From IMG/VR virus record IMGVR_UViG_3300045988_163731: a stretch of DNA of 63,234 nt; one strand, written 5' to 3'. Each line of letters starts with the position of its first letter. Positions within the stretch are counted from its first letter, which is position 1. Positions 8,669 to 59,193 of this stretch are shown here, piece by piece. Under the pieces are notes generated by a model. It did no database searches, was not told the origin of the DNA, and worked only from the letters and a program-made list of their open reading frames with translations. Position numbers and translations under genes: made by a program. The stretch is from a virus.

Positions 8669-8678
8669 CCGCACAATA

Positions 8679-29323: not shown

Positions 29324-32300
29324 ATGGCATACTCTAAATATGGTTTATCATTCAAAAATTTTACAGATAGTTATGGTGAATGGGAAGCTAATGGCGGTGT
29401 AGAACAGGCCAACAAAGCCATAGATTTTAAGAATCTACAAAACAATAGCTTTAATGTGCGTGGTTTACCAGGAGGCACTTTTGGCCAATCAGTAATAGAT
29501 AGTGCTCTTGGAGCAGCAGGCAATATTGATGATTTTCTTGGTGGGCCAACAGGACTTGGAGATTATGCCAATAACTATGTCACTGCACAGGAAATGGCTA
29601 TGGGCGAAAAGCCTGAAGCTGATTTCTCTTGGGACTATCTTATAAATGGCCTACCTCGTGATACCGGTAATCTGATAGGCTCTGGAATTGGTTTGGCTGC
29701 ACCTATCGCAGCTGCAACATTGGCAGCACCATTTGTTGGCGTTGGTGCTACTGCTGCTGGTATAGGTGGTGCACTTGCTGGAGCTGGACTGGAGTCTATG
29801 GCTGAGGGTGGTCAAAAAATGCGTGATTCCTTAGCCAATGGTGACTCTCTGGAAACAGCGCAGGATAAAGCAAGGACTGTAGCAGGCGAAAATATGGCGT
29901 TGCTTGCGCCTACAAACATTTTAGGACTGGGAGCGTTAAAGAAAGTAGGGCAGGGATTAAAGACTGCATATAATGGCGGTAAAGCCGTCTCTGCTACTGG
30001 TGGTGCATTAGCAAACTATCCTAAGTTATCACAGGCAGTTGACTTTGCAAAAGGTGCTGGCTGGGCAGGCCTTGGAGCGATGAACGAAGGTGCACAGGAA
30101 GCATGGCAGCAGGGTATTCAAGACAGCGTTGAGCCTGATACTGATTGGGGCATTTTGCCTTGGAATTGGAACGACGAACAGACAGAGGCTTTTGAATCCA
30201 CTATTGGGCCTACAGCTCTTATGGCTGGTGCTGGCGGTGGTGCTAGATTGGCAGCCCGAAAGCTGGGAATGTCTGATGTGCCACAGGTTGATACAGCTCC
30301 ACAGGTTAACAACAACCTCTTCGGTGCTGGCACTGCTGAAATTTCCACACAGGGAGCTGATATTGACGAGCAGGTAGCACACTTGAAAGACGGGTATCAG
30401 TCTGTTATTCCACAGGTTGCAGGTGTGCTGGTTAATGACTTTGGCATTGAGGGTGCTCAAATCTCTAGTGGTTTTAGAACCCGTGAACACAACAGGGAAG
30501 TAGGCGGTGTAGAGAACTCCAACCATGTTGGCGATGGTGAACATGGCGACGCTTTGGACATTGTTCTGCCTGATGGTGTTTCTGCTGAAACAGCAGAAGC
30601 AATCAAACAGAGATTTGAGAACAGTGGTGTATTTGACGAGGTATTGTTCCATGACGCTGGCAGTGGCTACCACCTGCATTTAGGCGGACTGAAAACAGAT
30701 AACATCGGCAACAGCTATGGCTCTTACTCCGGTGATGCTGATGTGGATTCTGCTATCAATGAAATGGCTGAGAAGTACAATCTTGACCCTGCACTATTGG
30801 CAGCAATAGCAGAGCAGGAAAGCGGATTCAATCAGTCTGCACAGTCAGGGGCAGGCGCAATGGGCATTATGCAGTTAATGCCTGACACTGCCGAGGGGCT
30901 AGGAGTGGACCCTAGCGACCTCCGAGGCAACTTAGAGGGTGGAGCAAAATATCTCCGTCAGATGTTGGATAAGTACGATGGTGATGTAGAAAAGGCCCTT
31001 GCTGCTTACAATGCTGGCCCTGGTAGTCTTGATAGCGTAAATGGGGATATTTCCCAGCTGTCAGGTGAAACACAGAAGTATATTCCCTCTGTCATGGAGC
31101 GGTATAATAAGTTCAAAAACAAATCAGGCGGTGGCATTAGCAGTAGTGGCAATATCCTTGATTGGGACTCTACCAATGAGGACTTTTCCAAGCTGGACTT
31201 CTTCCCTAAAGATGGTGAGCAGTCACAGGGGACAGTCAATGAGTTCCTTGAAAACCTTGCCAAGCTGGAGGAAAGTGACGATAAGGCCACCAAGGAAAAG
31301 GGCAGACAGGCACAGGATATTCTACAGCAGTATGGTGATGATACTGAAAAGCTGACAGAAAAGGCTAAGGAATTAGGCTATCAGCAGATAGTAGACCCAG
31401 CAGAGGTACATGGCCGTATTCCTATGAGGCGCATTGTGTCTACAGCTCTGGACAAGGGGCAGGTAACATTTGCCACCAAAAAGGCTGCTGATATTTTCGC
31501 TTCTTCTCCTATCGGCCAGACTATGGAACGGCAGGGGAAAACATTTAAGGTTACTGACAATTTCAAGATGAATGAGCAGGTCAACGCTATTAGTCAGCAG
31601 GTTTATTCTGACAATACAGCTAGGACCAAAACTGTCAAAAATGGTGTTATGGCGGATGCTGCGGCTGCAAATAGAGAACTAAATGGGCAGGCAAGACCTC
31701 CTATCCAGCAAAACGATTCTGTGCTTACTGATGAGGATAGGGGTAGACTCATCAGTGTTATGCCTAATCTGCCACCACAGGTACAACAGCAAATACAGGA
31801 AGCTCTTGCTGAGAACGACATAAAGTCTGTACGCCAGTTGCTTGATGAAGCGACTAATAGCACACCTCTAAACGCTGAAACAGATATTGAAAAAGCAAAA
31901 GCTATAACGAGAGCCTTACTGCAAAATCCAGAAGCAACAACCAGCTGGGACGGCAACGGGGCTGTTAGAACTGCTGCTATAGAGGGATTTATCAACAGCA
32001 ATAATTTAGATGGACTGAATCGTGCTAACAAATACATGGCTCAAAACCTGCGTGACAAAGGCATCAACCCGCTGGAGGTATTGAATCAGAATATAGAAAA
32101 GCCAAACACTTTACCAGCTGTGCAGGGGGAGCGTATGCCATCTACCGATGTACAGCGTGAAGAACCTGCCATTGAGGGAACAGTGGAAGATACTGTCATT
32201 ACTCCTCCGTATAATGGCAATGAGGTAAAAGTTAATAAAGGCGAGCATAACTACTATAAGTGGTTAAGACAAAATGGCTTTGCCCAGCAGGATAGGGCAC

Positions 32301-35300
32301 CAGAAGGCGCACCACAGCTAGCAGAAAACAAAGAATCCACTGGCACGAATAGTGAAAATCAGACCAATTCCCCAACAAGCAAAAATACTGAAATAGAACT
32401 TGCAGATGGATATTCAACTGAATCTGGCAAACCTCTTAATGAAGCAAATGAGCGAGAGTTCATTGTGAAACCTGATGGGAGCAAGGATTTTGGTGAGATT
32501 TCAAGCGATATTTCAGAAGCTACTCATGGTGCGTTAAAATCAGCTCCTATACGGCTACAAGTAGGCAATGAAGTTTTTGGGTATATTCATCTGCTTAAAC
32601 ATGCTAGCCAAATGAAACAAAAAGGATATGATGTGATGGGTTACATCAATCATATCCTAAATAATTTCAATCAAATATACAGCCAGCAAAGTGATAAAAA
32701 GCCAAACCGTTTTGTATTATATTGCAAAGATGATTCAAAAGGCTTTATGCCTATAGACTTGGAATTTGAAAAAGGAAGCGATGATTACTATACGATAGTA
32801 TCTGCAATGCCACATAGAGCAAAAATAAAAGGAACATTGCTCTATGATGGGAGTGCAAATCCATCTATCGCTACCACCGGCGATACCCTTCTTGCAGAGG
32901 CTGACAATAAAGGTGGAGTCAGCAACACTGCGAACACGCATGGGAAGAACAATGTTCCTTCTTCTACCTCTACTATACCACAGAATCAGGATAAGGGCAA
33001 TGAAAATCCTAATGCTTCTAATGAGCCAATGCGTAAGGAACTTATAGAGCAGGCTGCTGCCAATGAAGATACCTGGGTAAATAGCAAGAAAAGCGAGCTT
33101 CACCTTGAAGATGATAACGATACTGTTGTCAAACTCACTCCACAGGAACTGAAATATTATCAAGACTTGATAAAAAAAGGTGTGGTAGCAAAGCCTGAAC
33201 TGTACGAGGAAGCCCAAGAAGATGTTGGCGAAATGGACGACAATGTGGAGATGTCTAAAGAGCAAAAGCAACTCTATGACGAAAGTAGCGACGATAGGGA
33301 TATGCCAAGTGTTGAAGATGAGGCAGAACCTACAGCTGATGAACCACGCACTAAATATAGTAGGGAGAAAAGTCCTGTTGACAAAAAAAAGCCTACTCAC
33401 CATAATGTAGAGTGTAGGGATGTAAAGGAACAAGCGAAACGTTATGTCCAGAGCAGACTTGATAACGGTGCATTAAAAACACTCAAACCGACTGATGATG
33501 TAAATACTGCTATTGAAAAGATTATTGCTCCTATAAAAAGGGAAGTTGATAATCAAGCTGCTAGGTATTTAGAAACTGGCCATGAGCCAGAATATTATCA
33601 GGCTCGTTTAAATATGATTAATTATTACAAGCAACTTGTTGATGAAATAAGGAGGGATTTCAATGCAGGTGATAGACAGTCTGATGTCTACGGACGAGTT
33701 ATTAACGATACTTGGTTCAAACAATCCGCAGGAGAGGGAAGCAACCTCCGAAAAAGTGTTCAAAAGAGAAATGCAGAGATTGAAACACGAGAAGATGAAA
33801 ACTCAGGAGTAAATTCATCCTCTGCAAAAACGGGCAAGACATATGAGAATTATAACCCTAAAACACAAAAGGTATTAGATATGATGTATAAGCACTCTTC
33901 ACGTGATAAGAGTGCTTTTTCTATTGAGCCTATAAATCCACATTCTGCCGAAGCTCAAAAGGAGAACGGCAACAGCAACACTGAACTTGATAGGTTGCCA
34001 AAGGTGCCTATTGCCAAGCTCCGCCAGAGCGAGCAAAGGATTGTCAGATTTGGTAAAGCTATTGGTGTGCCTGTCCATTTTGTTGAGTCAAACGAAACGA
34101 CTAATCGTGGTGTATTCACCCACAATGGTGAAATCTTCATTAACCGCAAGGCAACGGTTCCAGCTCATTCTATCTTTGTACATGAGTTTGTGCATTGGCT
34201 AAAGGCCAGCCCTGAAAATGCTGGTGCATATGATGTGCTTCATGCGTGCTTGGAGAACTCTAGCGGGCTTTTCAATGAGGCACGAATCAATAAGTATCGG
34301 AATAAAATTTTCGATGGCAATAAGATGACTGACGAGGAAATAGTGGAGGAGATTATCTGCGACGCTATGACACAAACCGAGTCAGCCGAAAAGTTAATGC
34401 GTGCTGTTAATAATGTTGATGGTAGCCTTGTCACTAGGATTGCTGGCTGTCTAAAGGCTATGTGGGATAAGTTCTGCGAGTACATGAATTTCAAGCAGCA
34501 TAAAATGAGCAATGAACAGCAGCTGCCAAATGAGTTATCAGTAGCAGAGTTCCAGAGAGCTGATACAGCTTTCAACAAAATTCTGATGAATCTGAAAAAC
34601 GATAATGGCGAGCCTGTATTCCATCGGGTAGGCACAGAGCTTTTGCTGCGTGACAACAACGCAAAGCCTGCAGATACATACCAGCTAAACCCTATCAGCT
34701 ATACTTATGCAGTTGCATACTCCAAGGAAAATAAGGACAATAAGCCTATTGATGAAAAGGCAAAAAACATTCAAAATGAGTATGAGGAGTTATCCGATGA
34801 AGATAAAAAAATCATTGATGACAAAGTGCAAAAACGGCTAGCTGTATTTCAGAATACAGTAGCTGAGAAGATAAGGCAGTCATTCTTAGAACGCTTTACT
34901 GACAGTGATAAGAATTTATCGATTCAGGAATTAAAGAACGATAGTAGAGAACGTGAATGTTTACGAGTATTGTATGAACAATCAAGTAGATATAGTGGCA
35001 AGGTAAGTAATTATAAGGAAGCCCTCCATACATTAGTACCGTGGTATGATACCAATGGGAAAAGTAGGGACCAATTAGTAGAGGATTATAATAGGTTTAA
35101 ACGGCTAGCAGAGGAGATGTTGAATTATGGAACATACACCTTTACCGAACTCTGTAGACAATTTTGCGGACGCGGCAGAGATAATGTTATTAAAAATTCT
35201 GGAAGAAATGTCGAATCAGACCGCGACCTCGAACGCAGAACAAAAGCAACCAAAGGCTTAAGGCAACTGTTCTTAGAGCAGGAGCTAAATAATCTAAAAC

Positions 35301-38300
35301 GTGACAAGCACTCTGAACAGGGTGCTTTTTCTAATGGCAACAAATATTCCCGTGGTGTTGACCTTAGCCCATCGACTGATGGTGTGGCTATTGCTGCCAG
35401 AGCCAACAATAATCTTGTGGCCAACATGAAAGGCATTGTCAAAAAGGCAAATGCCAAGTTTAATCCATTCCACCATGAGGAGCTGGAAAACCTGCGTATT
35501 GATAAGCGTGACGAGAAGAAAGACCTTAACCTTATTGAGTATCAGTTTGTTTCCCCGACCAGGGAGAGCAAGAAGTACAAAGTTATCCAGCCGTTTGTTA
35601 TGAAAGGCAAGCAGGCTATGGCCAAGCAGGAAAAGCTAAGGTTCGAGTTCAATGAGGGCATGAACGAACTTGATAGGCTGCTAGGCTGGCGAGAGGGATT
35701 CCATCGGAATGACCCTAAGTTCAAAGAGCGAAAGGAAGCCCTGAACGAAATACTGTTAAAGGGCGACCTAGAGAGAAAGAATTTCACCAATAAAGAATTA
35801 ATTGAGGCTGGCTATGACGCTGAAACCATCAAGGGCTACCGCAAAATGAGAGCACTCCTGGATAAGGCTTGGAAACTTGCCAATGACATCAAGTCAAGAA
35901 TCAAGTATCAGAGCATAACCAGCTCCACCCTGCGCCGTGCCGAGGCTGATTTTGCAGACTTAAAGGATAAGAACCCATTTGCTGAAATCATCAGCAAGGT
36001 ACACAATCCTGATGGAACTGTGACCATTAACTACAAGGCACCTCATGTAAGGCGTGTGGCAAAGCAGACTGTGCTGCCATCCGAGCTGGAAAACCTCCGC
36101 AAGAACAAAGATGTTCACATTGTGGAAACCACCCAGAGCCTAAAGGGGACTACACAGGTAACTTACTATCAGCGTGAAGCAGGCATGGGCAAATTAGAGG
36201 GATATATCCCTCATATCTTCCACGGCTGGTATGTCTGCAAGGTAGACAAGGACGGCAAGGCCATTGTAGACAAGGACGGCAATGTAGCTATGGATAATAT
36301 CATGACTACAGCCAATTCCCTGTCAGAAGCAGCCAAGCTAGGGCGTGAGCTTGCCAAGGAAAACCCTAACGCTAACTATCGTGTTGTTCCACAGACGTTC
36401 AGCGCACCTGGGGCACAAGAACAGGCTATTGTCATGGGTGACTTTGACTATGCCAAGATAGTAGGCAAAGTGGCTGACTCTATGTCCATGAGTATAACTG
36501 ACGCTCAGGCAATGCTTGATAACACTGTCAAGATGAAAAATCGTGGCAGGTTCTATGGCTATGCTAAACAGCGTAAGGGCTTCAAGGGATTCGAGCAGAA
36601 TGTTTACCTTGCCACTATGAAGTATTTCAACCAGACTGCACGCTATGCAGCTATGGACTCTTTCAAGAGGGATTCCATTAGTATGTATAACCGCATTTTT
36701 GGAGCCTTTGACGATGAGAATGTAACAAAGAGAAGTGCTATGGCCAAGTGGACCAAGCAGTATATCAGTGATATGAATGGTACTCCAACTTGGATTGAGA
36801 AGATGATAAATAACACCTTGCACAATTTCGGGTTGGGCGAGGAGAGAGCAGGGGGCAGACCTGCCTTGTGGTTACAGCAAAAAATCTTCACATATCCTAT
36901 GACCATTCTAAAGCTGGGTGTATTTAACCCGTCCTCTGCCCTGCTGAACCTCACACAGCTCTTTAACCTTTATGGAGCTATGGGAGAAAAGGTACTTAGC
37001 CCACAGGCCTACCAGCGACTCCTACACAAAGGATTTGCTGATACATTCAGGGCAATGAACAATAAGGATAGTGAGCTGGGCAAGTTGCTATGGAAAGACC
37101 TTGGCCTTGATTACCAGATTGGCATGGATATAGCCTCTGGTTATTCCAATGCAGAGGTCAACAACCTTGCTTCCCTGCGAGGTTTTGCAGGTCGTTTGGC
37201 TGGCAAGTCTATGTATTTGTTCAGACAGACCGATGCCTTTGCCAGAGGTGTTACCTTACTGACAGCCTATAACAAGGCGTTAGACGAGGGTAAGAGCAAA
37301 GCAGAGGCCATTGAGTATGCCAAGGAGATAAACGACAAGGTAAACTTTGATGGCTCTGTTGCCGACGAGCCTACCATATTCAGAGCACTTGGCCCAATAT
37401 CCAAGGTTTTCTTGCAGTTCAAAAAATACCCTGTTAAGCAGTTAGAATTGTTCCAGGACTTCTACCTTGATGGCAGGGAACTTGGACTCAACCGCAAGCA
37501 GTCATGGATGCGAATGGCGAAATACATGGCACCATATATGGCAATGTCAGGCATGATGGGTATTCCGTTTGTCAGCCTAGCTAACGGATTGTTCTCCTAC
37601 CTTACAGGTATTTTTATCGGTGATGATGATTGGGATTGGGAGAAGAAAATTAAACAGTTCATGATTACGGAGTTTGGCGAGGACTGTCCTTTGACTCAGT
37701 GGTGGTTGTATGGTGCAGGTTCTTTCATTGGGCTAAACCTTGGCAGCCGTGTAGGTGTTGGCGATTTCTTAGGCTCCGACTCTTACAACTCCGCTGACGG
37801 ATTGGCTGGCCTTGCGTGGAATCAGACCACTCTTGGCTCCACTGTTAATCAGGTGCTAAAGCAGATGTCTTACCGCAATTATGCGGAAGCTCTAAAGGCT
37901 GTTAATCCTACTATGGGTAACATCGTACAGGCATACAAGGGCGAGGTTAGAACCACTAGAGGCCGTATGAAGTATCAGTATCAGAATATGGCTGAAAGAA
38001 TGTGGCGGGCCATTGGCTTTACTCCACTCAATGAAACTTTGGCTGGCGACCTTGCAAGCAATGAGTATGCTGAAAAGCAGGAGCAGACCAAGGCAAAGCA
38101 GGAAGCTGTAGATGATTTCTTAGCAAATCCAAGCAGTGAAAATGCTGACAGACTGAATGAGCTGGGTGTTACTCCAAAATCCTTGGAGAATGAATCAGCC
38201 AGACGGACAATGAACCGCCATCAGCTGAATGAGTTAGCTAAGGAAAAGGAAGCAGCAAAGAAAAAGAAGAAACCAAAGACATACTCTGCCAGCGATTACT

Positions 38301-38317
38301 TAAAAGCTGTGCAATAA
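29324..38317 (+). CDS. Giant (2997 aa) multidomain virion-associated protein. Carries a Gly-rich hydrophobic N-terminus, a Peptidase_M15-like domain, an SLT lytic-transglycosylase domain, and a central HExxH zincin-like motif.
   Basis: RBS AAGGAGGAAAG before the ATG. The M15 motifs are SGFRTREHN...HVGDGEHGDALDIV. The SLT motif is AIAEQESGFNQSAQSGAGAMGIMQLMPDTA. The zincin motif is IFVHEFVHWL. The ORF is unbroken. Confidence 0.8.
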   Translation: MAYSKYGLSFKNFTDSYGEWEANGGVEQANKAIDFKNLQNNSFNVRGLPGGTFGQSVIDSALGAAGNIDDFLGGPTGLGDYANNYVTAQEMAMGEKPEADFSWDYLINGLPRDTGNLIGSGIGLAAPIAAATLAAPFVGVGATAAGIGGALAGAGLESMAEGGQKMRDSLANGDSLETAQDKARTVAGENMALLAPTNILGLGALKKVGQGLKTAYNGGKAVSATGGALANYPKLSQAVDFAKGAGWAGLGAMNEGAQEAWQQGIQDSVEPDTDWGILPWNWNDEQTEAFESTIGPTALMAGAGGGARLAARKLGMSDVPQVDTAPQVNNNLFGAGTAEISTQGADIDEQVAHLKDGYQSVIPQVAGVLVNDFGIEGAQISSGFRTREHNREVGGVENSNHVGDGEHGDALDIVLPDGVSAETAEAIKQRFENSGVFDEVLFHDAGSGYHLHLGGLKTDNIGNSYGSYSGDADVDSAINEMAEKYNLDPALLAAIAEQESGFNQSAQSGAGAMGIMQLMPDTAEGLGVDPSDLRGNLEGGAKYLRQMLDKYDGDVEKALAAYNAGPGSLDSVNGDISQLSGETQKYIPSVMERYNKFKNKSGGGISSSGNILDWDSTNEDFSKLDFFPKDGEQSQGTVNEFLENLAKLEESDDKATKEKGRQAQDILQQYGDDTEKLTEKAKELGYQQIVDPAEVHGRIPMRRIVSTALDKGQVTFATKKAADIFASSPIGQTMERQGKTFKVTDNFKMNEQVNAISQQVYSDNTARTKTVKNGVMADAAAANRELNGQARPPIQQNDSVLTDEDRGRLISVMPNLPPQVQQQIQEALAENDIKSVRQLLDEATNSTPLNAETDIEKAKAITRALLQNPEATTSWDGNGAVRTAAIEGFINSNNLDGLNRANKYMAQNLRDKGINPLEVLNQNIEKPNTLPAVQGERMPSTDVQREEPAIEGTVEDTVITPPYNGNEVKVNKGEHNYYKWLRQNGFAQQDRAPEGAPQLAENKESTGTNSENQTNSPTSKNTEIELADGYSTESGKPLNEANEREFIVKPDGSKDFGEISSDISEATHGALKSAPIRLQVGNEVFGYIHLLKHASQMKQKGYDVMGYINHILNNFNQIYSQQSDKKPNRFVLYCKDDSKGFMPIDLEFEKGSDDYYTIVSAMPHRAKIKGTLLYDGSANPSIATTGDTLLAEADNKGGVSNTANTHGKNNVPSSTSTIPQNQDKGNENPNASNEPMRKELIEQAAANEDTWVNSKKSELHLEDDNDTVVKLTPQELKYYQDLIKKGVVAKPELYEEAQEDVGEMDDNVEMSKEQKQLYDESSDDRDMPSVEDEAEPTADEPRTKYSREKSPVDKKKPTHHNVECRDVKEQAKRYVQSRLDNGALKTLKPTDDVNTAIEKIIAPIKREVDNQAARYLETGHEPEYYQARLNMINYYKQLVDEIRRDFNAGDRQSDVYGRVINDTWFKQSAGEGSNLRKSVQKRNAEIETREDENSGVNSSSAKTGKTYENYNPKTQKVLDMMYKHSSRDKSAFSIEPINPHSAEAQKENGNSNTELDRLPKVPIAKLRQSEQRIVRFGKAIGVPVHFVESNETTNRGVFTHNGEIFINRKATVPAHSIFVHEFVHWLKASPENAGAYDVLHACLENSSGLFNEARINKYRNKIFDGNKMTDEEIVEEIICDAMTQTESAEKLMRAVNNVDGSLVTRIAGCLKAMWDKFCEYMNFKQHKMSNEQQLPNELSVAEFQRADTAFNKILMNLKNDNGEPVFHRVGTELLLRDNNAKPADTYQLNPISYTYAVAYSKENKDNKPIDEKAKNIQNEYEELSDEDKKIIDDKVQKRLAVFQNTVAEKIRQSFLERFTDSDKNLSIQELKNDSRERECLRVLYEQSSRYSGKVSNYKEALHTLVPWYDTNGKSRDQLVEDYNRFKRLAEEMLNYGTYTFTELCRQFCGRGRDNVIKNSGRNVESDRDLERRTKATKGLRQLFLEQELNNLKRDKHSEQGAFSNGNKYSRGVDLSPSTDGVAIAARANNNLVANMKGIVKKANAKFNPFHHEELENLRIDKRDEKKDLNLIEYQFVSPTRESKKYKVIQPFVMKGKQAMAKQEKLRFEFNEGMNELDRLLGWREGFHRNDPKFKERKEALNEILLKGDLERKNFTNKELIEAGYDAETIKGYRKMRALLDKAWKLANDIKSRIKYQSITSSTLRRAEADFADLKDKNPFAEIISKVHNPDGTVTINYKAPHVRRVAKQTVLPSELENLRKNKDVHIVETTQSLKGTTQVTYYQREAGMGKLEGYIPHIFHGWYVCKVDKDGKAIVDKDGNVAMDNIMTTANSLSEAAKLGRELAKENPNANYRVVPQTFSAPGAQEQAIVMGDFDYAKIVGKVADSMSMSITDAQAMLDNTVKMKNRGRFYGYAKQRKGFKGFEQNVYLATMKYFNQTARYAAMDSFKRDSISMYNRIFGAFDDENVTKRSAMAKWTKQYISDMNGTPTWIEKMINNTLHNFGLGEERAGGRPALWLQQKIFTYPMTILKLGVFNPSSALLNLTQLFNLYGAMGEKVLSPQAYQRLLHKGFADTFRAMNNKDSELGKLLWKDLGLDYQIGMDIASGYSNAEVNNLASLRGFAGRLAGKSMYLFRQTDAFARGVTLLTAYNKALDEGKSKAEAIEYAKEINDKVNFDGSVADEPTIFRALGPISKVFLQFKKYPVKQLELFQDFYLDGRELGLNRKQSWMRMAKYMAPYMAMSGMMGIPFVSLANGLFSYLTGIFIGDDDWDWEKKIKQFMITEFGEDCPLTQWWLYGAGSFIGLNLGSRVGVGDFLGSDSYNSADGLAGLAWNQTTLGSTVNQVLKQMSYRNYAEALKAVNPTMGNIVQAYKGEVRTTRGRMKYQYQNMAERMWRAIGFTPLNETLAGDLASNEYAEKQEQTKAKQEAVDDFLANPSSENADRLNELGVTPKSLENESARRTMNRHQLNELAKEKEAAKKKKKPKTYSASDYLKAVQ

Positions 38318-39223: not shown

Positions 39224-39519
39224 TCACCGCCTATTCACAATCATTTTACCATACTTGGGCTTTTTTGCAAACAAAAAGAACCCTGCCGTCTGATACAGGG
39301 TTCTTCTTGCTTGCTATTCATTTTAGAGAGTTCAGCCATTGCGTGGCAATTAACTACTCTTTTATTATACATCAAGTATTTCAAAAATGCAAATATTATT
39401 TTATTGCTACTTATGCTATTTATGTTCAATTAATTATTTTGATATTTAATTGCTAGTTTTAAAAGTTTTGTTCATTAGAAATGTAGAAAAAATAATTTAG
39501 GATTTGAGAAAATTTTCCT

Positions 39520-39575: not shown

Positions 39576-39746
39576 AATGTTGGCAAAAAAAATTGGTCGC
39601 CCAGTCGTTGGGCAACCCAAACCAATAAAGCTGACTGTACGAGTAACGGAACAGGCTTTACAGGCATTAGATACATATTGTACTAAACATAATTTATCTC
39701 GTGCTGATGGCGTACGGTTAGCCCTTAACGACTTGCGAAACAAATA
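39576..39746 (+). CDS. Small ribbon-helix-helix-like protein (57 aa), paralogous in type to 7059-7235
   Basis: RBS AAGTGAGGTG before the ATG at 39576. Product is MLAKKIGRPVVGQPKPIKLTVRVTEQALQALDTYCTKHNLSRADGVRLALNDLRNK. Confidence 0.5.
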
Positions 39747-39864
39747 AAGAAGTTCGCCCCTCCGACCAAGAACGAGCGAACTTCACAAGAAAGGAAAAGA
39801 ATACTTTCCTCAAATCTATTTTATCATGAGGTCAGTATTCTTTCAATAAGAAAGGAAAACTGCA

Positions 39865-40806
39865 ATGACAAATATTTTAAACCATGATAATGTAAAACCT
39901 GTAGTAGCTGTAGCCACTGAATACATTGTTGATTACCATCAGGCTGATAGAGCTGTATTGAATCAATTAGTTACCAGCAGTCAGATAGTAGCGTTTTATT
40001 TCAATAAACAGCACAAGCATGTACTTCGAGCAATAGACAATATCATTGCTGAATTTTCAGCGATGACCTCAGAAAACATCAAAGCCCAAAATTGGGCTTT
40101 GACCTCTATGTTCTATACAGCTTCGTACAAGACAGGCACAGGCAAACGCTATCCAATGTACTTTATGAACAGGGATGGATTCTCTCTGCTGGCAATGGGC
40201 TTCACCGGGAAGAAAGCCTTGGAATGGAAGATACGGTATATCCAGGCTTTCAATGAAATGGAAAGGAAGCTGAAAGAACAGGGTATGCTCAAAAATGAGC
40301 ATACCCCTAAACATTCCTCGGCTAACAGCAAGGCTCCCGATGTCGCTCCACCAGAGGTACTGGCACAGGCCAGAGCCAAGACCATGTTAATGAACGCAAG
40401 GACTAGACAGGCAAAGCTATGGAAAACATTAGCTGACGAATCCACAGGAACCTACAGGGAGATTTGCAAAGTGTATGCTGCCAATATCCTAGCAGGGAAA
40501 GAAGTATTGCCACTACCCAAGCCACCCCAAAAGACAATGACTGCAACGGAGCTGGGAGAGGCAACTGGGCTGACTGCAATGAATGTAGGCCTGCTGGCTA
40601 ATAAGTACAATCTAAAAACTGCCGCCTTTGGCCAGTGGGTGTACGATACATTGAAAAATGGCAGGCAGGTAGAATCGTTCAGATACTATGAGTCTGCCAT
40701 ACCGGTAATCAAGGAAATAGCAGAGGCAGAGAGAAAGAATAAAAAGCTGGTAATTAAGACGCCCCTAGCGGAGCTTTTAGGGGATATTATCATATTCACT
40801 AAATGA
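39865..40806 (+). CDS. Phage regulatory protein Rha (N-terminal) with an antirepressor C-terminal domain
   Basis: KRYPMYFMNRDGFSLLAMGFTGKKALEWKIRYIQAFNEME is the Rha signature. The C-terminal half aligns with the C-terminus of 6161-6940. Confidence 0.85.
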   Translation: MTNILNHDNVKPVVAVATEYIVDYHQADRAVLNQLVTSSQIVAFYFNKQHKHVLRAIDNIIAEFSAMTSENIKAQNWALTSMFYTASYKTGTGKRYPMYFMNRDGFSLLAMGFTGKKALEWKIRYIQAFNEMERKLKEQGMLKNEHTPKHSSANSKAPDVAPPEVLAQARAKTMLMNARTRQAKLWKTLADESTGTYREICKVYAANILAGKEVLPLPKPPQKTMTATELGEATGLTAMNVGLLANKYNLKTAAFGQWVYDTLKNGRQVESFRYYESAIPVIKEIAEAERKNKKLVIKTPLAELLGDIIIFTK

Positions 40807-41055
40807 TTGTATGGCCTACAGTCTTTACCCCGCTTGTAGGGGCTGTAGGCCTAAATCAGGGCAAAGAAAAACAACCTGCTCTCGGATACTCGAACTAAAG
40901 AAGAACAGGTTGCTTTTCTCTCACGTAGCCCTAATGGGAATAGACTTTTGAAGAAACGTACCGAAAAAAATTTAAGGGATAATTCTCTTTTATTATAGCA
41001 AAACTAGCAATTAATTTCAAGAGTTTTATTTGCTAATATTGCTAAAGTTGAACAA

Positions 41056-41367
41056 TTATTGTCCAAACATTTTCTTTGACATTAATTCAAACTGCTGGAG
41101 AATAGGCTTCCATTGCTCCATGTGGGAATCTATCAGGCCTTTCATGAATTGGTTTACGGATACATTGTTAATCTTTGCCAGCTGCTTTATGGCTTCGATT
41201 TGTTCCTCTGGGACAATAAGGTGAAGATGTTTTAACTCTACATCTGGGTTGTCAGGTTTCCTGCCTCTTTTCTTTGGCTCCTCCAGCTTGGGTTTTGTGA
41301 TTATATCCTTGGCAGCCTCTTTGTAAACATCAAAAGGGCTAGCAACTTTACTAAAATCTTTCGCCAT
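41056..41367 (-). CDS. ParG-like RHH partition/centromere-binding protein
   Basis: C-terminal RHH HLIVPEEQIEAIKQLAKINNVSVNQFMKGLI. Start codon overlaps the parA stop. RBS GGAGGTAG. Confidence 0.65.
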   Translation of the reverse strand: MAKDFSKVASPFDVYKEAAKDIITKPKLEEPKKRGRKPDNPDVELKHLHLIVPEEQIEAIKQLAKINNVSVNQFMKGLIDSHMEQWKPILQQFELMSKKMFGQ

Positions 41368-42167
41368 TATTCTACCTCCGTTTCAGGCTCTTGATAGTTG
41401 AAGATTTCTTGTATCAAACTCAGGTAGTCTTTAGCAGCATTGCTGTTTTTATCGTAAGAGAAAATATCCTTAACACTGGCTTGGGCTTCCTTAATGGCTA
41501 CATTTTCTCTGATACCTGTTTCAAAAACTTTTGTTTTCATTTTCGTGGCAGCACTCTTAAAGAGTTTGTTCATATCCTGTGCAATGCGGGTGCGCTCATT
41601 GTAGCGTGTCATTATTATGCCCGCTATCCTCAACCTGGAGTTGCAGTATTCCCTGACTGACTCAACGGTAGCATACAGCTGACTCACACCTTGCAGACTC
41701 AGAATGTCGGCCTGTGCAGGAATGATTACCCTGTCTGCTGCGGTCAGCGCATTTGCTGTCAGAGTCCCCAGGGCAGGTGGGGTGTCTATTATGATGAAGT
41801 CATACTCCTTGGCTTTACTGCTACCTTTAATGGCCTCCTGTAGCTTATATGACCTGCTTATAGGGTCTGTCAGTCTGCCATCAATGGAAGCAAGAAACAT
41901 GGAGGCAGGAACAATGTCATACTTCTCTAACTGCTGGATTCCCTCAAACAGCCTTGCCTCACCAACAAGGCACTCCAATATGGTAACGACATCAGCATTC
42001 TGAGTGTCAGTTACAGCGCCACATACTTGTGATAGATTACTCTGTGGGTCCAGGTCTAAAAGAAGAACCCTCTTTCCGTAATAGTCCCAAAGCCCAGCGG
42101 CCAGATTTTGAGCGGTGGTGGATTTTCCTACTCCTCCCTTTTGGTTAGCGATGGCGAAAACCTGCAT
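41367..42167 (-). CDS. parA: ParA/Soj-type partition ATPase
   Basis: Deviant Walker A NQKGGVGKSTT, plus LLLDLDPQ. Confidence 0.9.
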   Translation of the reverse strand: MQVFAIANQKGGVGKSTTAQNLAAGLWDYYGKRVLLLDLDPQSNLSQVCGAVTDTQNADVVTILECLVGEARLFEGIQQLEKYDIVPASMFLASIDGRLTDPISRSYKLQEAIKGSSKAKEYDFIIIDTPPALGTLTANALTAADRVIIPAQADILSLQGVSQLYATVESVREYCNSRLRIAGIIMTRYNERTRIAQDMNKLFKSAATKMKTKVFETGIRENVAIKEAQASVKDIFSYDKNSNAAKDYLSLIQEIFNYQEPETEVE

Positions 42168-42242
42168 GATAATACCCCTTTCAAAAAATTTTTTAAAAAT
42201 TTCTCCAAAACATTTATACAGAAAATACTTTCCAAACTGAAC

Positions 42243-42260
42243 ATAACTAGCATAACTAGC
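42243..42260. repeat. Tandem ATAACTAGC x2 (TAGCA-core sites) about 75 bp upstream of parA. Candidate partition operator/centromere site.
   Basis: Reverse complement GCTAGTTATGCTAGT recurs at 7405-7419. Core spacing is 9 bp. Confidence 0.5.
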
Positions 42261-42689
42261 AGCTTGGGAATGTTGGTATTTATGAATATTCTATACTATT
42301 ATTACATGAATAGCAACAAAAAACTCATGCTAGTTATGAATTAATTGTTCAATAATAGCATGAGTAACAATAATAGCAATAGTAGCAGTTTTTATTATTT
42401 CTATTCCTTGAATAAGTTGTTGTGTTGACAAGTTTCCAGAGATGTAGTATTATGTCTGTAAAAGTTCTTTGAAAATAAAAAAGAGCAGGTCTTGTATGAG
42501 ATGCCAATCTCATACAAGCCTTAGAGTACGATTGCACCATAATCATACACCAAGTTTTCCTGCATATCTTTATGTAGGAATTATAACATAAAAGGTCAGC
42601 GTTGGTCAATCGTACCAGCGCTTTTTTAGTGGAACAATTTAAATAAATTTCAAATAATAAAGTATAAACCAAAAAGATTAATAAGTAAG

Positions 42690-43230
42690 CATTTTGGTTG
42701 TTTGGCGGCGGTTCAGATTATTGTTAGTTTTCTTGACCGTTTGCGACAAGTGGAGAGCGACCACTATAAAAAGGCAGTCTAATCCAGCTCATGCAGAGAA
42801 TGGATTCGTCTTAACGCGATTGTCTTATGTTTGTGTTGCGTTACGGCGTCAGCAGGTAAAGAGTACCAAGCCTGTGTTAAGCCTAAGTCTTGGTATCAGG
42901 ATAAGCTGTTAGCAATAGCAGCGTGGCAAAAGGGAACGGGGGTATCGTCAGGGCCAGCACCATACTAACCAAGGCTGGGGAGGTACATCAGATAAGCGAA
43001 AGCCAAGCAGTCAGACGCTCGATAACGACTGTAGAACGATGTATGATAAGTCACAAACAGAAACACGGATACTCAAACGACGGGGCATTTTATATACTCT
43101 AGTTCCATGTTTAGGCAGACTTTCTTACGCTTGTCGTAGGAGTAGTCTGTCCAAAAGCCGTTGCTCTCACTCCGAAGCATTTTATATACTCTACAACTCC
43201 GAAGTCAACTCTATTCGTTAAAGTTTTTTT
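42690..43230 (+). ncRNA. Candidate structured non-coding RNA region (function unknown)
   Basis: About 540 bp with GC visibly above the neighbouring sequence. Internal 17-bp direct repeat GCATTTTATATACTCTA (about 43084 and 43173). Several hairpins. Only short R-rich ORFs that look spurious. Confidence 0.25.
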
Positions 43231-43264
43231 AATAGCTTGGCTCAATATTTCAGAATGAGTATAT

Positions 43265-45632: not shown

Positions 45633-45732
45633 GCTGATTTGCCTAGAAGTGTAACGATATAGATAATTTGTTCGGCAAAATATTGTCAAAAGGAACATAT
45701 AATCTGAACAAATTTACTAAATATATATTTGT

Positions 45733-45954
45733 TGCTATTATTGCTATTTCTGATTATCAAGAACATGAAAATCAATGTTAGCATAACTATCATAATTATC
45801 AAGATTATAGAATATAATTTATTTATCATTTATATCATGACTAGCATTGTTAACATGATTAGCATGAATATCAATGTTATCAATAATAGCATAAAATATA
45901 ATAATGAAAATAAGAACATAATTACCGATATTAGCATGATTAGCAAGTTTAGCA
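45733..45954. repeat. Iteron-like array of at least 10 TAGCA (and TGCTA) core sites, all in a 9-bp register. Candidate centromere (parS) or origin.
   Basis: TGCTA cores at 45733 and 45742. TAGCA cores at 45779, 45842, 45860, 45887, 45932, 45941 and 45950. Every inter-site distance is a multiple of 9. Confidence 0.7.
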
Positions 45955-45983
45955 TAATTACCAAAGAACGGAGGTGATATTTT

Positions 45984-47672: not shown

Positions 47673-48542
47673 ATGTCAACTGATGCAAGTATTATTGGCG
47701 TTGAAAAAGGCCAATACAATGTACCGACAAAAGAAGCTGGTAAATATGTAACTGTTCACTGGGAAACAGAGGTAGGCCAGCTTACAGACCTCACAGGTAT
47801 TTCTCATAACGGCATCTACCGGGGTAAAGACCTGACTAACTATTATGCCAGCGGGGAAATGTCCAAGGCTATCGCAAATGGCAGCTTTAAGGATATCTAT
47901 ATCGGTGACTATATCACCAAGAATATCGTTGTTGGCGGTACTACCTATCAGGTTAAGTGGGAAGTTGCTGATATAGATTACTTCTATAAGTCCGGTGATG
48001 CTTCTTGTGATACTCACCATGTAGTCCTGCTTCCATCAAAGGCTGTGTTTGTTAATATTAAGATGAATGATACCGACACCACTAAAGGCGGCTATGCAGG
48101 CAGCAAAATGTGGAAAGAAACCATTCCTGCTGTTGTTACCGGTATCAAGGCCGCGTTTGGTGCAGACCATGTGGTAAAGCATAGAGAATTGCTGACTATC
48201 AAAGTTTCTGCCACTGCTCAGTCTGTTGCTGGAGCTGGTTGGACTGGCAGTAGTACAGGACAGGCTTGGGCTGATGTAGAAGCTAACATTCCGACTGAGC
48301 CTATGGTTTATGGCGGTACTGTATTTGGTTCTAGTGGATATGATGTTGGAAGTGGCGGGAAACAGTTTGCTATCTTCAGATTCAAGAAGGACTGTTATCC
48401 TGATAGAATGTGGTTTTGGCTTAGAGCGGTGGCTTCGGCGTCTAGGTTCTGCCGCGTCAGCGCTAGTGGCTTTGCGAGCTCCCACGATGCTTCTATTTCG
48501 AACTCCTCTGGCGGCTGTCGCCCGTATTTCCTGTTCCGCTAA
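47673..48542 (+). CDS. DGR target protein (putative receptor-binding protein) with a C-terminal variable region
   Basis: Its 3' 100 bp is the VR. RBS AAGGAATG before the ATG. The C-terminus RAVASASRFCRVSASGFASSHDASISNSSGGCRPY corresponds to TR-encoded IAVASASRFCNVSENGNANYNDASNSNSSGGCRP. Confidence 0.8.
   Translation: MSTDASIIGVEKGQYNVPTKEAGKYVTVHWETEVGQLTDLTGISHNGIYRGKDLTNYYASGEMSKAIANGSFKDIYIGDYITKNIVVGGTTYQVKWEVADIDYFYKSGDASCDTHHVVLLPSKAVFVNIKMNDTDTTKGGYAGSKMWKETIPAVVTGIKAAFGADHVVKHRELLTIKVSATAQSVAGAGWTGSSTGQAWADVEANIPTEPMVYGGTVFGSSGYDVGSGGKQFAIFRFKKDCYPDRMWFWLRAVASASRFCRVSASGFASSHDASISNSSGGCRPYFLFR
48425..48524 (+). repeat. DGR variable repeat (VR)
   Basis: 100 bp, 88% identical to 49059-49158. 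All 12 mismatches lie opposite TR adenines. A GC hairpin GTCGCCCC-CTTC-GTGGGGCGAC follows 24 bp downstream. Confidence 0.85.
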
Positions 48543-48596
48543 CCTTGTCGTCGCCCCCTTCGTGGGGCGACATAATCGCCATTTTTAGGAGGTAAA

Positions 48597-49037
48597 ATGT
48601 CAGTATTAGCGAGAAATAGAAGTCTGTCGAAATTGGAGTTCTATACGACAGCTATAACTTTACGCAGAAAAATTACCAGAGAGCTTTTGATTAATTTTCA
48701 TATTAAGAAAAAGAATCAGGAGCTTGATGAATACTCAATTTGGCTGCTATCAAAACTTCGCGAGTCAATTTATGACATAATGCATGATATTGTACTTAAC
48801 ATCACGCGTGCGTATACAATCTGGGCTACAAGCCGTGCTGAAGCAGACGAAAGAAGGATAGCTCAGGACAGGGCTATTGCAGGGTGCGAAAGCATACTAA
48901 AAGAGCTGGAATTTGCTTATCAGGTACTGCCAGTAAGTGTTGAAAGGTATATGGTTTATGTAGAACTGGTTGAGAAAGAAATCGCCCTCATTAAAGGCTG
49001 GCGAAAATCAGACAACAAACGATATAAAAATTTATAA
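48597..49037 (+). CDS. avd: DGR accessory variability determinant (Avd-like small basic helical protein)
   Basis: 146-aa basic protein between the target gene and TR, the canonical Avd position. RBS AGGAGG before the ATG. Confidence 0.65.
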   Translation: MSVLARNRSLSKLEFYTTAITLRRKITRELLINFHIKKKNQELDEYSIWLLSKLRESIYDIMHDIVLNITRAYTIWATSRAEADERRIAQDRAIAGCESILKELEFAYQVLPVSVERYMVYVELVEKEIALIKGWRKSDNKRYKNL

Positions 49038-49058
49038 TTCTATAGGGTATCAGCTAAT

Positions 49059-49158
49059 AGCGGTGGCTTCGGCGTCTAGGTTCTGCAACGTCAGCGAAAA
49101 TGGCAATGCGAACTACAACGATGCTTCTAATTCGAACTCCTCTGGCGGCTGTCGCCCG
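49059..49158 (+). repeat. DGR template repeat (TR)
   Basis: Intergenic copy of the VR. Its AAC codons read as Asn in the VR frame. Confidence 0.85.
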
Positions 49159-49296
49159 CTTCTCATATCAGTCTACTCATAGACACATAACAGGGAATGA
49201 GCGGATATCCTTCCTTTAAAAGGTAAATAACAGTTGTGTGCAGTCCGTCTAAGGGCGCTGATTGCATATGCACAGCTATCCCCTAGGGGTTGATTA

Positions 49297-50490
49297 ATGA
49301 GAGATTTTACAAATGCAAATAGCTTGATGAGTGCCTACGAGCGTGTCAGAAAAACCAGCGGTTGGAAGGAAAGCACACAGCGGTATGGGCTTAATCTTTT
49401 GCGTGAAACCTACTGGTTACAGAAGGCTTTGCGGGAAAGAAACTACGCACAGCATGAGTGCAATACTTTCAAACTATGTGAAAGAGGTCATCTGAGGTTG
49501 GTAAAGGCTTTAGTCACAAGAGATATGGTTATGCAGCACTCTCTTTGCGATACGGTGCTTGTGCCAGAACTGCTAAAGTACATCATTCACGATAACGGCG
49601 CTAGCATAAAGGGCAAAGGCATTAGCTTTACAAGAAGGCGTTTTGAGCAACACCTTCGCTGGCATTATCGAAGATATAGTACCGAGGGGTATATTTTGAA
49701 AATTGACTTCAGGAAATATTTCGATAACATCCAGCATGGTATCTTGAAAAAGCTGATAGCCGAAAAGATACATAATGAAGATGTACAGTATGTATTGAAT
49801 GAAATTTTCAAAGCTAATGAGGTTGATGTCTCATACACTGATGACACGGACATTTTGCAAAAAGTGTTCAGTTCACTCGAGCAAGAAAAAATTGATACAG
49901 CGCTGCTTACCGGTAAAAGATTTATGCCTAAATCCTTAGGTATAGGTTCTCCGGTATCGCAGATTGCAGGTATCTTCTTTCCTTACAAAATAGACAATTT
50001 TTGTAAAACAGTTAAAGGCATTCATTGTTATGATGCATATATGGATGACAGAATTGTGATTCATAAGTCAAAAGAATTTTTGTGGAACTTGCTTGAAGAA
50101 ATAAAGGTACTTGCAGAAAAGCAGGGTATCACAATTCATCAAGATAAAACACAGATTATTAAGCTGTCCCATGGATTCACATTTCTAAAAACTAAATATA
50201 TTCTTACAGAAACCGGCAAAATAGTTAAGAAAATACCCCGCGATGTTGTTACAGTTGAGAGAAGAAAGCTCAAAAAGCTGGCCACACTGGTAGTATCGGG
50301 GGCTATGAGTCGGGAAAAATTCATTACACAGTATAAGTCGTGGAAAGGAGATAAGCAGAGATACTATAACGCTTATCATACTTTGAAAAATATGGATAAA
50401 ATTTTTAGGAGGCTACTAAAATGGATAACGCAACAAGAGAAACTATTAGACGCAAGCAGCAGGAAATCATCGACCTCATCGGAGAGCTGA
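49297..50490 (+). CDS. DGR reverse transcriptase
   Basis: YMDD box (CYDAYMDDRIVIH), DGR-type LGIGSPVSQIAGIFF motif, and ILKIDFRKYFDNI (RT motif 2). Confidence 0.9.
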   Translation: MRDFTNANSLMSAYERVRKTSGWKESTQRYGLNLLRETYWLQKALRERNYAQHECNTFKLCERGHLRLVKALVTRDMVMQHSLCDTVLVPELLKYIIHDNGASIKGKGISFTRRRFEQHLRWHYRRYSTEGYILKIDFRKYFDNIQHGILKKLIAEKIHNEDVQYVLNEIFKANEVDVSYTDDTDILQKVFSSLEQEKIDTALLTGKRFMPKSLGIGSPVSQIAGIFFPYKIDNFCKTVKGIHCYDAYMDDRIVIHKSKEFLWNLLEEIKVLAEKQGITIHQDKTQIIKLSHGFTFLKTKYILTETGKIVKKIPRDVVTVERRKLKKLATLVVSGAMSREKFITQYKSWKGDKQRYYNAYHTLKNMDKIFRRLLKWITQQEKLLDASSRKSSTSSES

Positions 50491-52370: not shown

Positions 52371-53051
52371 TTATTTGGAAACAGTATGCCCTAAACCTAT
52401 ACCGCCATTTCTAACGGCTTCTTCATAAGTTAGGGTAATGATGTCCCGAATCCTATCCTGTTGTTGCTTAGTGAGCTTGGCTATTTTCCCAGGCTCATTT
52501 ATTGTGCCAGTCATTTCTATATGGCTGATTTTCTTTAGAAATGCTGGGTTGTCTTTAAAGAGGACTTCCAGCAGATTGTAAGATGGAGTGTCTTTATCGT
52601 CTTCAATATTTTGAGCTGCCATTATGCTAAGAGGGTCAACCTGTAGAATCTCAGATAGTTTCTCTATCTTATCTCTACGCATATTGCAGCCTTCCCCAGA
52701 TTCCCAGCAGGACACAGTTGCTTCTGTGACACCTGCATAATCAGCAACCTCTTTTTGAGTTAATCCTAAGTGCAGGCGGCGCTCTTTTATAAATTTAGCC
52801 ATTTCCGAAAAATCCGTTGCCCCCATCAAAACAGCGGGTGTAGTGTGCAATGCTTCGGCAATTTTATATAGCTTTATTTGTTTTGGTACATATTTACCTT
52901 TTAAATATTCGCTTAATGTACCTCCACTTATGCCTGTGGCACGTGATAAGTCTACAGCTCTCAGTCCTGCCCTATCCATATAGCGTTTTAGTCGTGCGGC
53001 AAATTCTTTATTATAAGTAGCACGGTCTTTCACAATAACACCGCCTTTCAT
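52371..53051 (-). CDS. CI-like repressor with two tandem XRE-type HTH domains and no S24 peptidase domain
   Basis: Two HTH_3-like blocks: GLRAVDLSRATGISGGTLSEYLKG and GLTQKEVADYAGVTEATVSCWESG. Divergent from a Cro-like gene. Confidence 0.7.
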   Translation of the reverse strand: MKGGVIVKDRATYNKEFAARLKRYMDRAGLRAVDLSRATGISGGTLSEYLKGKYVPKQIKLYKIAEALHTTPAVLMGATDFSEMAKFIKERRLHLGLTQKEVADYAGVTEATVSCWESGEGCNMRRDKIEKLSEILQVDPLSIMAAQNIEDDKDTPSYNLLEVLFKDNPAFLKKISHIEMTGTINEPGKIAKLTKQQQDRIRDIITLTYEEAVRNGGIGLGHTVSK

Positions 53052-53137
53052 GTATACATATATTATACATAAAAATTATGAAAAAGTACATTAAAAATTT
53101 GGAAAACCATAACTTAAATGTTTGTAAAAAAATAATC

Positions 53138-53228: not shown

Positions 53229-53468
53229 ATGGAATTTGATTACAGCAAACTCCGAGGACGAATTAGAGAGATTCTAGGTTCAGAAGCAAATTTTTGTGAT
53301 AGAATGCCACTAACTCGCTCCTCAGTAAGCCTAAAGTTAAATGGCAAAGTGGAATTTACTCAAAGCGAAATTGCAGCTGCAATGGAAGTTCTTAAACTAC
53401 CTAAGAGCGCAATAGGCGACTATTTTTTTAAAGAAAAACTTCGGAAAACAGAGGAAGTAAAAATCTGA
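53229..53468 (+). CDS. Cro-like small XRE-family HTH protein
   Basis: MPLTRSSVSLKLNGKVEFTQSEI; divergent from the repressor gene. Confidence 0.65.
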   Translation: MEFDYSKLRGRIREILGSEANFCDRMPLTRSSVSLKLNGKVEFTQSEIAAAMEVLKLPKSAIGDYFFKEKLRKTEEVKI

Positions 53469-58999: not shown

Positions 59000-59193
59000 C
59001 AAGATTGGAAGAAGCAAGTCACGATGTAGCCGAATATATAAGCACATTATCAGAGTATGGTATGACAAAAGTTATGTGCGCTATCTCTTACCCAGGTAAA
59101 TGCTTGTTTTGTAAATGGGCAGAGAATGAAGAAAAGTGCTTAAAGAGTCGGTGTGAGGACGGGATAAAGGCATATTTGGAGGCTGACGAATGA
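58996..59193 (+). CDS. Small Cys-containing hypothetical protein
   Basis: ORF; ATGA overlap with the upstream gene. Confidence 0.4.
   Translation: MTRLEEASHDVAEYISTLSEYGMTKVMCAISYPGKCLFCKWAENEEKCLKSRCEDGIKAYLEADE

Follow-up and report, generated by a model that had tools for sequence, protein, structure and literature searches.

The virus record IMGVR_UViG_3300045988_163731 of IMG/VR, a stretch of 63,234 nucleotides that is hereafter called the window at its full length, is a complete phage genome, namely a circle of 63,159 bp once its identical first and last 75 bases are merged. This phage, which is temperate and gut-derived, encodes a two-gene partition operon made of parA and of a gene for a 103-amino-acid (aa) protein with a predicted ribbon-helix-helix (RHH) fold, and it carries arrays of 9-bp repeats with a TAGCA core beside this operon as well as in other parts of the genome. 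The features concerned are the following.

41367-42167, minus strand: parA, 266 aa, a small Walker-type Soj-like partition ATPase
41056-41367, minus strand: gene of the 103-aa protein, candidate centromere-binding protein
42248-42387, upstream of parA: proximal array of about 8 units with a TAGCA core, 9-bp period, both orientations
40996-41044, just downstream of the partition operon: two TAGCA doublets in inverted orientation
45725-45976: large non-coding array of about 27 uninterrupted 9-bp units, core TAnCA (7 TAGCA, 6 TATCA)
7403-7425: three units (TGCTA, TGCTA, TGGTA) in the promoter region of a Mrr_cat gene, beside an Arc-like + Bro-N cassette
39400-39424: three units upstream of an Arc-like RHH + Rha antirepressor cassette

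The partition operon and its repeat arrays

Profile scans against Pfam, PHROGs and NCBIfam covered every non-overlapping open reading frame (ORF) of at least 50 aa plus the ORFs masked by greedy selection. ParA matches the Pfam families AAA_31 (1.6e-48) and CbiA (3e-21) across its full length, and its match to the NCBIfam model ParA_partition (1.9e-33) lies under that model's cut-off. Like type Ib ParA proteins it is small and has a deviant Walker A motif (KGGVGKST); this motif starts at residue 10, so that no N-terminal DNA-binding (helix-turn-helix, HTH) domain is present, again as in type Ib. The nearest solved structures are a ParA family protein (8ray) and Soj of T. thermophilus, ParA being nearer to chromosomal Soj (E = 7e-38) than to delta of pSM19035 (E = 3e-11). 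Compared with the relative L119, parA has a pN of 0.057 and a pS of 0.53 (pN/pS about 0.11), and it is under purifying selection within the phage lineage.

Regarding the 103-aa gene, its ATG and the stop codon of parA share one base (TAATG), an overlap retained in L119, which stands at about 84% nucleotide identity. The partner gene lies directly downstream of parA in the operon, as in type Ib systems, and this pairing is kept in the lineage as well as in distant homologues. The family of the 103-aa protein is narrow, with just 16 representatives found among 1.8 billion proteins by an exhaustive HMMER search, and its members have in common an N-terminal KDF..NPF motif, a linker of variable length, a basic patch (KKRGRKP in the 103-aa protein), the RHH and an extra C-terminal helix. 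Every Pfam match of the 103-aa protein is sub-threshold and each is to an RHH family, over residues 46-84, and the family profile likewise retrieves RHH proteins from the PDB (DUF1778/AtaR, HP0222, KacA, AvtR and Arc, with E from 0.0035 to 1). The AlphaFold model used here was built from 20 sequences, an earlier one from 5 near-identical sequences having been poor (predicted local distance difference test, pLDDT, of 59); it reaches a pLDDT of 86-92 over residues 50-90 and is low over residues 1-45. The top Foldseek matches of this model are RHH proteins (Arc, CopG, AmrZ, TacA), with a target-normalised TM score of 0.75-0.89 and a root-mean-square deviation of about 1 A, at a probability of about 1 yet with E of at least 0.1. 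By these several lines, each weak and all concordant, the C-terminal half of the protein is predicted to be a ribbon-helix-helix.

Pairs of TAGCA at a 9-bp spacing (TAGCAnnnnTAGCA, with at most one mismatch) are enriched: 29 are observed, a number that none of 100 shuffles attains, the expectation being 7.85 +/- 2.59. Lone TAGCA pentamers show no enrichment. The clusters of such pairs span 42248-42387, 40996-41044, 45733-45963, 7403-7425 and 39405-39418, the last two in promoter regions near antirepressor cassettes. The original prediction, which had placed a ParA ATPase and a translationally coupled, ParG-like RHH protein beside TAGCA operator repeats, thus holds for the ATPase, for the coupling, for the RHH fold and role and for the repeats; membership in the Pfam family ParG (PF09274) does not hold, as the 103-aa protein has no match to it, the best value in its family (1 of 21 members) being E = 0.0096.

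On the minus strand, two promoter-like sites (42379-42352 and 42316-42288) have TTGCTA as their -35-like hexamer, and units of the proximal array overlap these hexamers. This stretch is near-invariant in three relatives (L003, L005 and L006), which differ by just scattered substitutions between the repeat cores, and we propose it to be the operator and proximal centromere. The two doublets on the other side of the operon (TAGCAAAACTAGCA at 40996 and TGCTAATATTGCTA at 41031) are both retained in relatives. The large array, which comes in addition to the repeats noticed earlier, lies 3.6 kb from parA and directly upstream of the operon for the tail fibre and a diversity-generating retroelement (DGR). 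In the comparison with L119 (83% identity), its 9-bp register is kept without any indel, positions 1, 2 and 4 of the unit being best conserved. An 82-aa ORF that runs over it was rejected as a gene, as it contains a stop codon in L003 and its substitutions have no third-position bias (9/16/10). We propose the large array as the main centromere; more generally, the 9-bp TAGCA arrays very probably are the centromere and the operator of the cassette.

The cassette is intact and of plasmid ancestry. Its closest annotated ParA is that of the Selenomonas ruminantium plasmid pSRC7 (59.5% identity; layout parA-orf-rep), in which the ORF downstream of parA is homologous to the 103-aa protein (E = 3e-7). 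Homologues of ParA with 64-67% identity are found on a plasmid-like contig with Rep_3, a MobA relaxase and SSB, and beside a restriction-modification system and a resolvase, a small overlapping ORF coming next in both instances; two further homologues of the 103-aa family (P0008 and P0011) also stand directly downstream of a ParA gene. Of the 120 nearest ParA clusters, none stands on a contig above 65 kb. The plasmid loci have 9-bp-period arrays of their own immediately upstream of parA, with the core CAACA at two loci and ATGTA in pSRC7, and cognate centromeres of diverged specificity would be expected to differ in this way. pSRC7 and the related metagenomic plasmids resemble the phage by a homologous ParA (59-67%), by the arrays and by a downstream protein with the KDF/NPF motif, an RHH and a C-terminal helix; unlike the phage, their cassettes adjoin Rep/Mob genes, have other cores and encode partners with longer low-complexity linkers. 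With high confidence, we regard the cassette of the phage as a putatively functional type Ib-like partition module taken from host plasmids.

Lifestyle of the phage and alternative explanations

The phage is equipped for lysogeny control by a CI-like and Cro-like switch and by three antirepressor genes.

52371-53051, minus strand: CI-like repressor, two HTH_3 domains, no S24 peptidase domain
53229-53468, plus strand: Cro-like DUF739 protein, divergent from the CI-like gene
53486-54292, plus strand: antirepressor, ORF6N + ANT/KilAC
39865-40806, plus strand: Rha-type antirepressor, preceded by a 56-aa Arc-like RHH repressor (39577-39747)
6161-6940, minus strand: Bro-N antirepressor, preceded by a 58-aa Arc-like protein (7059-7235, minus strand)

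Repeats with a period of 21-23 bp lie between the CI-like and Cro-like genes (53066-53135). The Arc-like RHH of the Rha cassette belongs to PHROG 876, transcriptional repressor; this cassette (39.5-40.8 kb) is missing from the relative L003, and a sibling genome, NODE_101, has a Rha-type gene at the position held here by Bro-N. Both cassettes, with a small RHH repressor followed by an antirepressor gene, are like immI of P22, where the Arc and Mnt repressors stand over the antirepressor Ant. This likeness concerns the antirepressor cassettes and not the partition operon, and it is relevant only as those RHH proteins are candidate alternative binders of the TAGCA units.

By contrast with this temperate equipment, no tyrosine or large-serine integrase, DDE transposase or protelomerase was found among all scanned ORFs, none of which matches the families Phage_integrase, Recombinase, rve or protelomerase. 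Xer/dif-type integration was rejected, since no dif-like site was found, and an N15-like linear plasmid prophage was rejected on the lack of a protelomerase match and on circular assemblies with arbitrary break points. The only serine recombinase belongs to an IS607 insertion sequence (IS), which the assembly junction divides into two parts.

61728-63234, plus strand: left part of the IS607 element, with TnpA (61784-62452) and the start of TnpB
1-651, plus strand: right part, across the assembly junction, with the TnpB C-terminus to 455 and a RAGATH-18 RNA (540-612)

TnpA reaches 223 bits (1.6e-66) against the NCBIfam IS607 transposase model, of which the cut-off is 110. As is typical of IS607, a serine-recombinase TnpA with an N-terminal MerR-type HTH is followed by TnpB, which matches OrfB_IS605 and Cas12f1-like_TNB, in one discrete mobile unit. 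The RAGATH-18 RNA (Rfam, 67 bits), which lies inside the element just 3' of tnpB, may be its guide/omega RNA. The element, 2,084 bp long, has inserted between the ribosome-binding site of a 144-aa gene and its ATG, and its presence is polymorphic among near-identical siblings; in the sibling ERZ1748966 NODE_101 the whole element is absent and the site is empty (GGTTGAGGAGGA followed by ACAGAAATG). Its recombinase is therefore dispensable to the phage, and TnpA was rejected as the phage integrase.

Another candidate for a hidden integrase was a 269-aa gene of related phages (PHROG 4285 'transposase', Pfam Transposase_20), rejected because it is absent from the window and has no DEDD catalytic domain. 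This gene is part of a 1,346-bp insertion near window position 60880 in many sibling and more distant phages (7377-8723 in L188), which the window does not have and which comprises, besides the 269-aa protein, about 530 nt of repeat-rich non-coding DNA. Between phages with just 58% identity in the neighbouring genes, this protein keeps 99% identity, a pattern suggestive of a mobile element, possibly with a guide RNA.

The exact 75-bp terminal repeat of the window (bases 1-75 = 63160-63234) falls, with the assembly junction, within the 421-aa TnpB reading frame, and it is therefore an assembly closure and not a physical end. Besides the window, three independent assemblies close the same circle.

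NODE_1: 63,214 bp, that is 63,159 + 55
NODE_101: 61,088 bp, IS-free version, with a start/end overlap that would be about 55 nt
NODE_65: 65,966 bp, that is 63,159 plus a 2.8-kb wrap-around

ParA and three other phage proteins each recur as exact copies on a number of long contigs, every one of which falls in the 50-200-kb class. Among the 7-11 long contigs per protein that were obtained for three phage proteins, none is above 200 kb, and no host genes were seen in the flanks read. A sibling phage is carried at the end of ORPK01000052.1 (L118), a SPAdes contig of 100,744 bp, of which the terminal 58,336 bp are the IMG/VR entry, a cut that makes the entry 890 bp shorter than the true circle. The contig ends 81 nt into the 269-aa gene, a complete exact copy of which lies just outside the cut, and in 21 of 21 contigs with the exact gene it is found inside phage DNA, between the replication module and DUF3310. 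Because the gene occurs partly at the end and completely beyond the cut, ORPK01000052.1 most likely spans more than one genome length, about 1.7, and on the sequence read, all but its left 42 kb, the contig was rejected as evidence of an integrated sibling prophage.

The phage is probably hosted by a member of the Selenomonadaceae, Anaerovibrio or Selenomonas, because copies of the IS607 element with 99.5% identity occur in Anaerovibrio lipolyticus An883 and in a Selenomonas metagenome-assembled genome and because of the plasmid affinities of ParA.

From this gene content, we lean with moderate confidence towards a phage that is kept as an extrachromosomal plasmid-like prophage. As in a phage-plasmid, full phage functions (packaging, virion, lysis and lysogeny control) come together with the lack of an integration module; with no integrase, transposase or protelomerase of its own despite a repressor/anti-repressor switch, the likeliest purpose of the cassette is therefore the stable inheritance of a circular prophage. 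Dimers of the 103-aa protein would bind cooperatively to the 9-bp TAGCA-core arrays; the proximal units, by overlapping the parA promoter, would provide autoregulation; the arrays, including the one of roughly 27 units at 45.7-46.0 kb, would serve as centromere, and nucleoid-bound ParA would separate the replicated copies. The other premises on which a plasmid-prophage lifestyle had been suggested, namely a CI/Cro-like switch with three antirepressors, the absence of an integrase, a sole serine recombinase confined to IS607 and the self-closure of the contig by a 75-bp overlap, were all recovered. The circle is moreover closed repeatedly and no host junction was seen in the long contigs of the lineage; the lifestyle itself continues to be deduced from genes, among which no plasmid replicase was recognised.

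Several observations weigh against this interpretation. The profile scans recognised no plasmid-type replication initiator, just a phage DnaD-like/DnaC-like module, and neither a multimer-resolution system nor an addiction module was found. The portal gene has no relative among sequenced plasmids, and the phage is absent from the isolate genomes searched. Circular assemblies equally fit circularly permuted, headful-packaged virion DNA, and the samples may be virus-enriched or bulk. Many ORFs are of no known function, such as that of a 240-aa protein (59190-59912), and a novel recombinase could hide there. The two further Arc-like RHH repressors encoded by the phage, with TAGCA doublets beside their cassettes, are candidate rival binders of the repeats. 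A distant relative, mosaic and with 40-78% aa identity, sits integrated within a chromosomal contig of 325 kb (ERZ27287383 k141_194735, L205); it is rearranged, shares an early-gene block, a holin-like gene and a DGR-type reverse transcriptase, has a host SDF transporter gene at its right edge and shows no replication module within the 20 kb read. Finally, Anaerovibrio chromosomes have between leuD and thiH a 10-kb island (L105 8900-19200) with fragments of the giant gene of the phage, which encodes its 2,997-aa virion protein; the island is made of scrambled, partly duplicated pieces of residues 1140-2997 at 91-96% nucleotide identity. This island, in which no integrase was found, is present in at least five independent assemblies and may represent a store of cassettes, a remnant or a decoy.

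Some of these points would fit an alternative that we consider unlikely, in which the phage integrates by an unrecognised route (a novel recombinase, a host recombinase or homologous recombination of its IS607 copy with chromosomal ones) and the cassette is accessory and may, for instance, stabilise the excised or replicating genome or act as a plasmid-incompatibility weapon. The near-identical IS copies in the putative host, the mosaic relative within a chromosomal contig, the giant-gene fragments in Anaerovibrio, the lack of a detected plasmid replicase and the fact that about half of the ORFs match no family in Pfam, PHROGs or NCBIfam could all be read in its favour. However, these databases returned no enzyme for integration, no dif-like site is present, the long contigs of the close lineage show no host junction and the IS is absent from a sibling genome; moreover, the chromosomal island is the scrambled middle of one gene and not a prophage, and the cassette is under purifying selection across the lineage.

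A second alternative is that no stable lysogen exists and that the phage is an unstable episome (carrier state or pseudolysogeny), of which the cassette merely prolongs carriage during slow host growth. All the contigs seen could stem from virions or from replicating DNA, and a dedicated plasmid replicon, a multimer-resolution system and an addiction module were not found, as such a state would have it. Recognisable replicases are nevertheless often missing in known phage-plasmids (PMC7969092), and the CI-like/Cro-like switch, the operator-like repeats and the three antirepressor cassettes, two of them under Arc-like repressors, amount to true temperate equipment, which makes this alternative quite improbable.

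Least probable of all, and in our opinion very unlikely, the TAGCA arrays would be operators of the Arc-like repressors or phage promoter elements, and ParA and its RHH partner a regulatory or positioning module unrelated to inheritance: this would account for the doublets beside both Arc-like + antirepressor cassettes, for the overlap with the -35-like hexamers and for the place of the large array directly upstream of the tail-fibre/DGR operon, but on bona fide plasmids the homologous ParA-RHH pairs come with separate 9-bp arrays directly upstream of parA, a relative without the Arc-like/Rha cassette of 39.5-40.8 kb still has the arrays, and 27 units kept in phase are a typical feature of centromeres and not of promoters (PMC3074162).

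Relation to known partition systems and phage-plasmids

Type Ib partition systems include TP228 ParF/ParG/parH and pSM19035 delta/omega, in which the RHH protein both autoregulates and marks the centromere at arrays that overlap promoters. The phage is like them in the order of the genes, ATPase then RHH, and in its promoter-overlapping repeat arrays, and the arrays that pSM19035 has at several promoters resemble the extra TAGCA sites of the phage. Unlike these systems, the phage has no Pfam ParG match, an ATPase closer to Soj and a period of 9 bp rather than 8 or 7. It is conceivable, and in our view rather unlikely, that the 103-aa RHH protein is also an omega-like global regulator that couples the segregation of the plasmid-prophage to the lysis-lysogeny decision. 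The protein would then bind at its own promoter, beside both antirepressor cassettes and before the tail-fibre/DGR operon. The phage would then stand for a new phage-plasmid group, one in Negativicutes that unites portal and capsid genes of SU10 type with a DGR and a giant polyvalent virion protein.

The ParB protein of pCXC100, from Leifsonia xyli, is an RHH type Ib centromere-binding protein that binds nine contiguous 9-bp direct repeats (PMC3074162). pCXC100 and the phage have in common a small Walker-type ParA and a 9-bp repeat centromere, putative in the phage and bound successively by dimers in pCXC100, and both binding proteins combine a flexible N-terminal part with a C-terminal RHH invisible to sequence searches. 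In contrast, no sequence similarity is detectable between the two binding proteins, and the replicon here is a phage, with units in either orientation and divided among several clusters, and with a largest array that counts about 27 of them against 9 and stands 3.6 kb from the operon.

Temperate phages that combine a partition system with the lack of an integrase are well known, namely P1, N15, SSU5 and those cluster A mycobacteriophages in which parABS replaces the integration cassette (PMC7969092); about 20% of cluster A actinophages are without an integration module (Pfeifer et al. 2021, PMC7969092). The phage described here is like them in being temperate, with lysogeny control, a partition system and no integrase. 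It differs by a lack of structural-gene similarity to known phage-plasmid groups and by an RHH partner in place of an HTH ParB; unlike the P1, N15, SSU5 and cluster A set, it has no plasmid replicase or protelomerase, and its plasmid state is one that we infer from genes.

The concept of the phage-plasmid is well established, and the gain here is thus one of breadth and not of principle, within a host group and a phage lineage that are both under-sampled. To our knowledge, no phage-plasmid has been described in Negativicutes, and a literature search on Anaerovibrio together with phage-plasmid yielded no paper. If the plasmid-like prophage is confirmed, this lifestyle would reach into the Selenomonadaceae (Negativicutes) of gut and rumen and into a structural lineage very distant from cultured phages, and it would offer a clear case of a phage capturing the partition cassette of a host plasmid. 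Tools that rely on integrases or on host flanks would then misjudge such phages. Moreover, a family of RHH proteins that is new and narrow, with centromere binding at 9-bp arrays as its putative role, would become testable.

Other features of the genome

Regarding the remainder of the genome, the profile scans identified packaging and virion genes (TerS, a terminase-large-subunit candidate, an SU10-type portal and major capsid protein), a lysis region with Amidase_2 and XhlA, and replication genes for Sipho_Gp157, AAA_24, DUF669-like, HNHc_6, DnaD-like, DnaC-like and DUF1064 proteins. The identity of the portal to that of any cultured phage is at most 28%.

14182-16743: terminase-large-subunit candidate, 853 aa, assigned by position, with family matches only to a LAGLIDADG intein
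29324-38317: virion protein, 2,997 aa, with SLT and M15 domains
47673-48542: DGR target gene, variable repeat at 48412-48524
48597-49037: DGR Avd-like gene
49046-49158: DGR template repeat
49297-50490: DGR reverse transcriptase

The intein (LAGLIDADG/Hom_end) splits the terminase candidate at residues about 290-385, and a free-standing GIY-YIG homing endonuclease gene is found at 3938-4717. Homologues of the 2,997-aa virion protein bear PF18809, PF18798 and PF18763, which we take to be phage 'polyvalent protein' domains. The DGR is complete (47673-50490), and its template and variable repeats differ at 16 positions, 14 of which are template adenines. A defence/counter-defence pair is possible at 7448-9455, where a 406-aa protein with a C-terminal Mrr_cat nuclease domain is encoded together with a GmrSD_N (DUF262) protein of 239 aa on the opposite strand, the latter without its usual C-terminal nuclease domain.

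Two non-coding stretches neighbour the partition operon, the first of which is listed here.

42455-42632, plus strand: candidate structured small RNA, about 175 nt, in the interval from parA to the lysis genes, divergent from parA

This candidate has a near-consensus promoter, TTGACA-17-TATTAT (42425-42453), an intrinsic terminator (42598-42622) and a fold with a minimum free energy of -59 kcal/mol (z = -7.7), and it has no Rfam match. The second stretch, at 42690-43235, comprises 546 nt free of ORFs, with a G+C content above that of its surroundings. It was considered as a large non-coding RNA, an integrase pseudogene or a plasmid origin, and none of these gained support: the z of its fold is about 0 on either strand, Rfam gives no match and its ORF fragments have no Pfam match. 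The only similarity found is that of a 53-nt piece (42761-42811), at 87% identity, to a part of a Butyrivibrio fibrisolvens plasmid that is without annotation.

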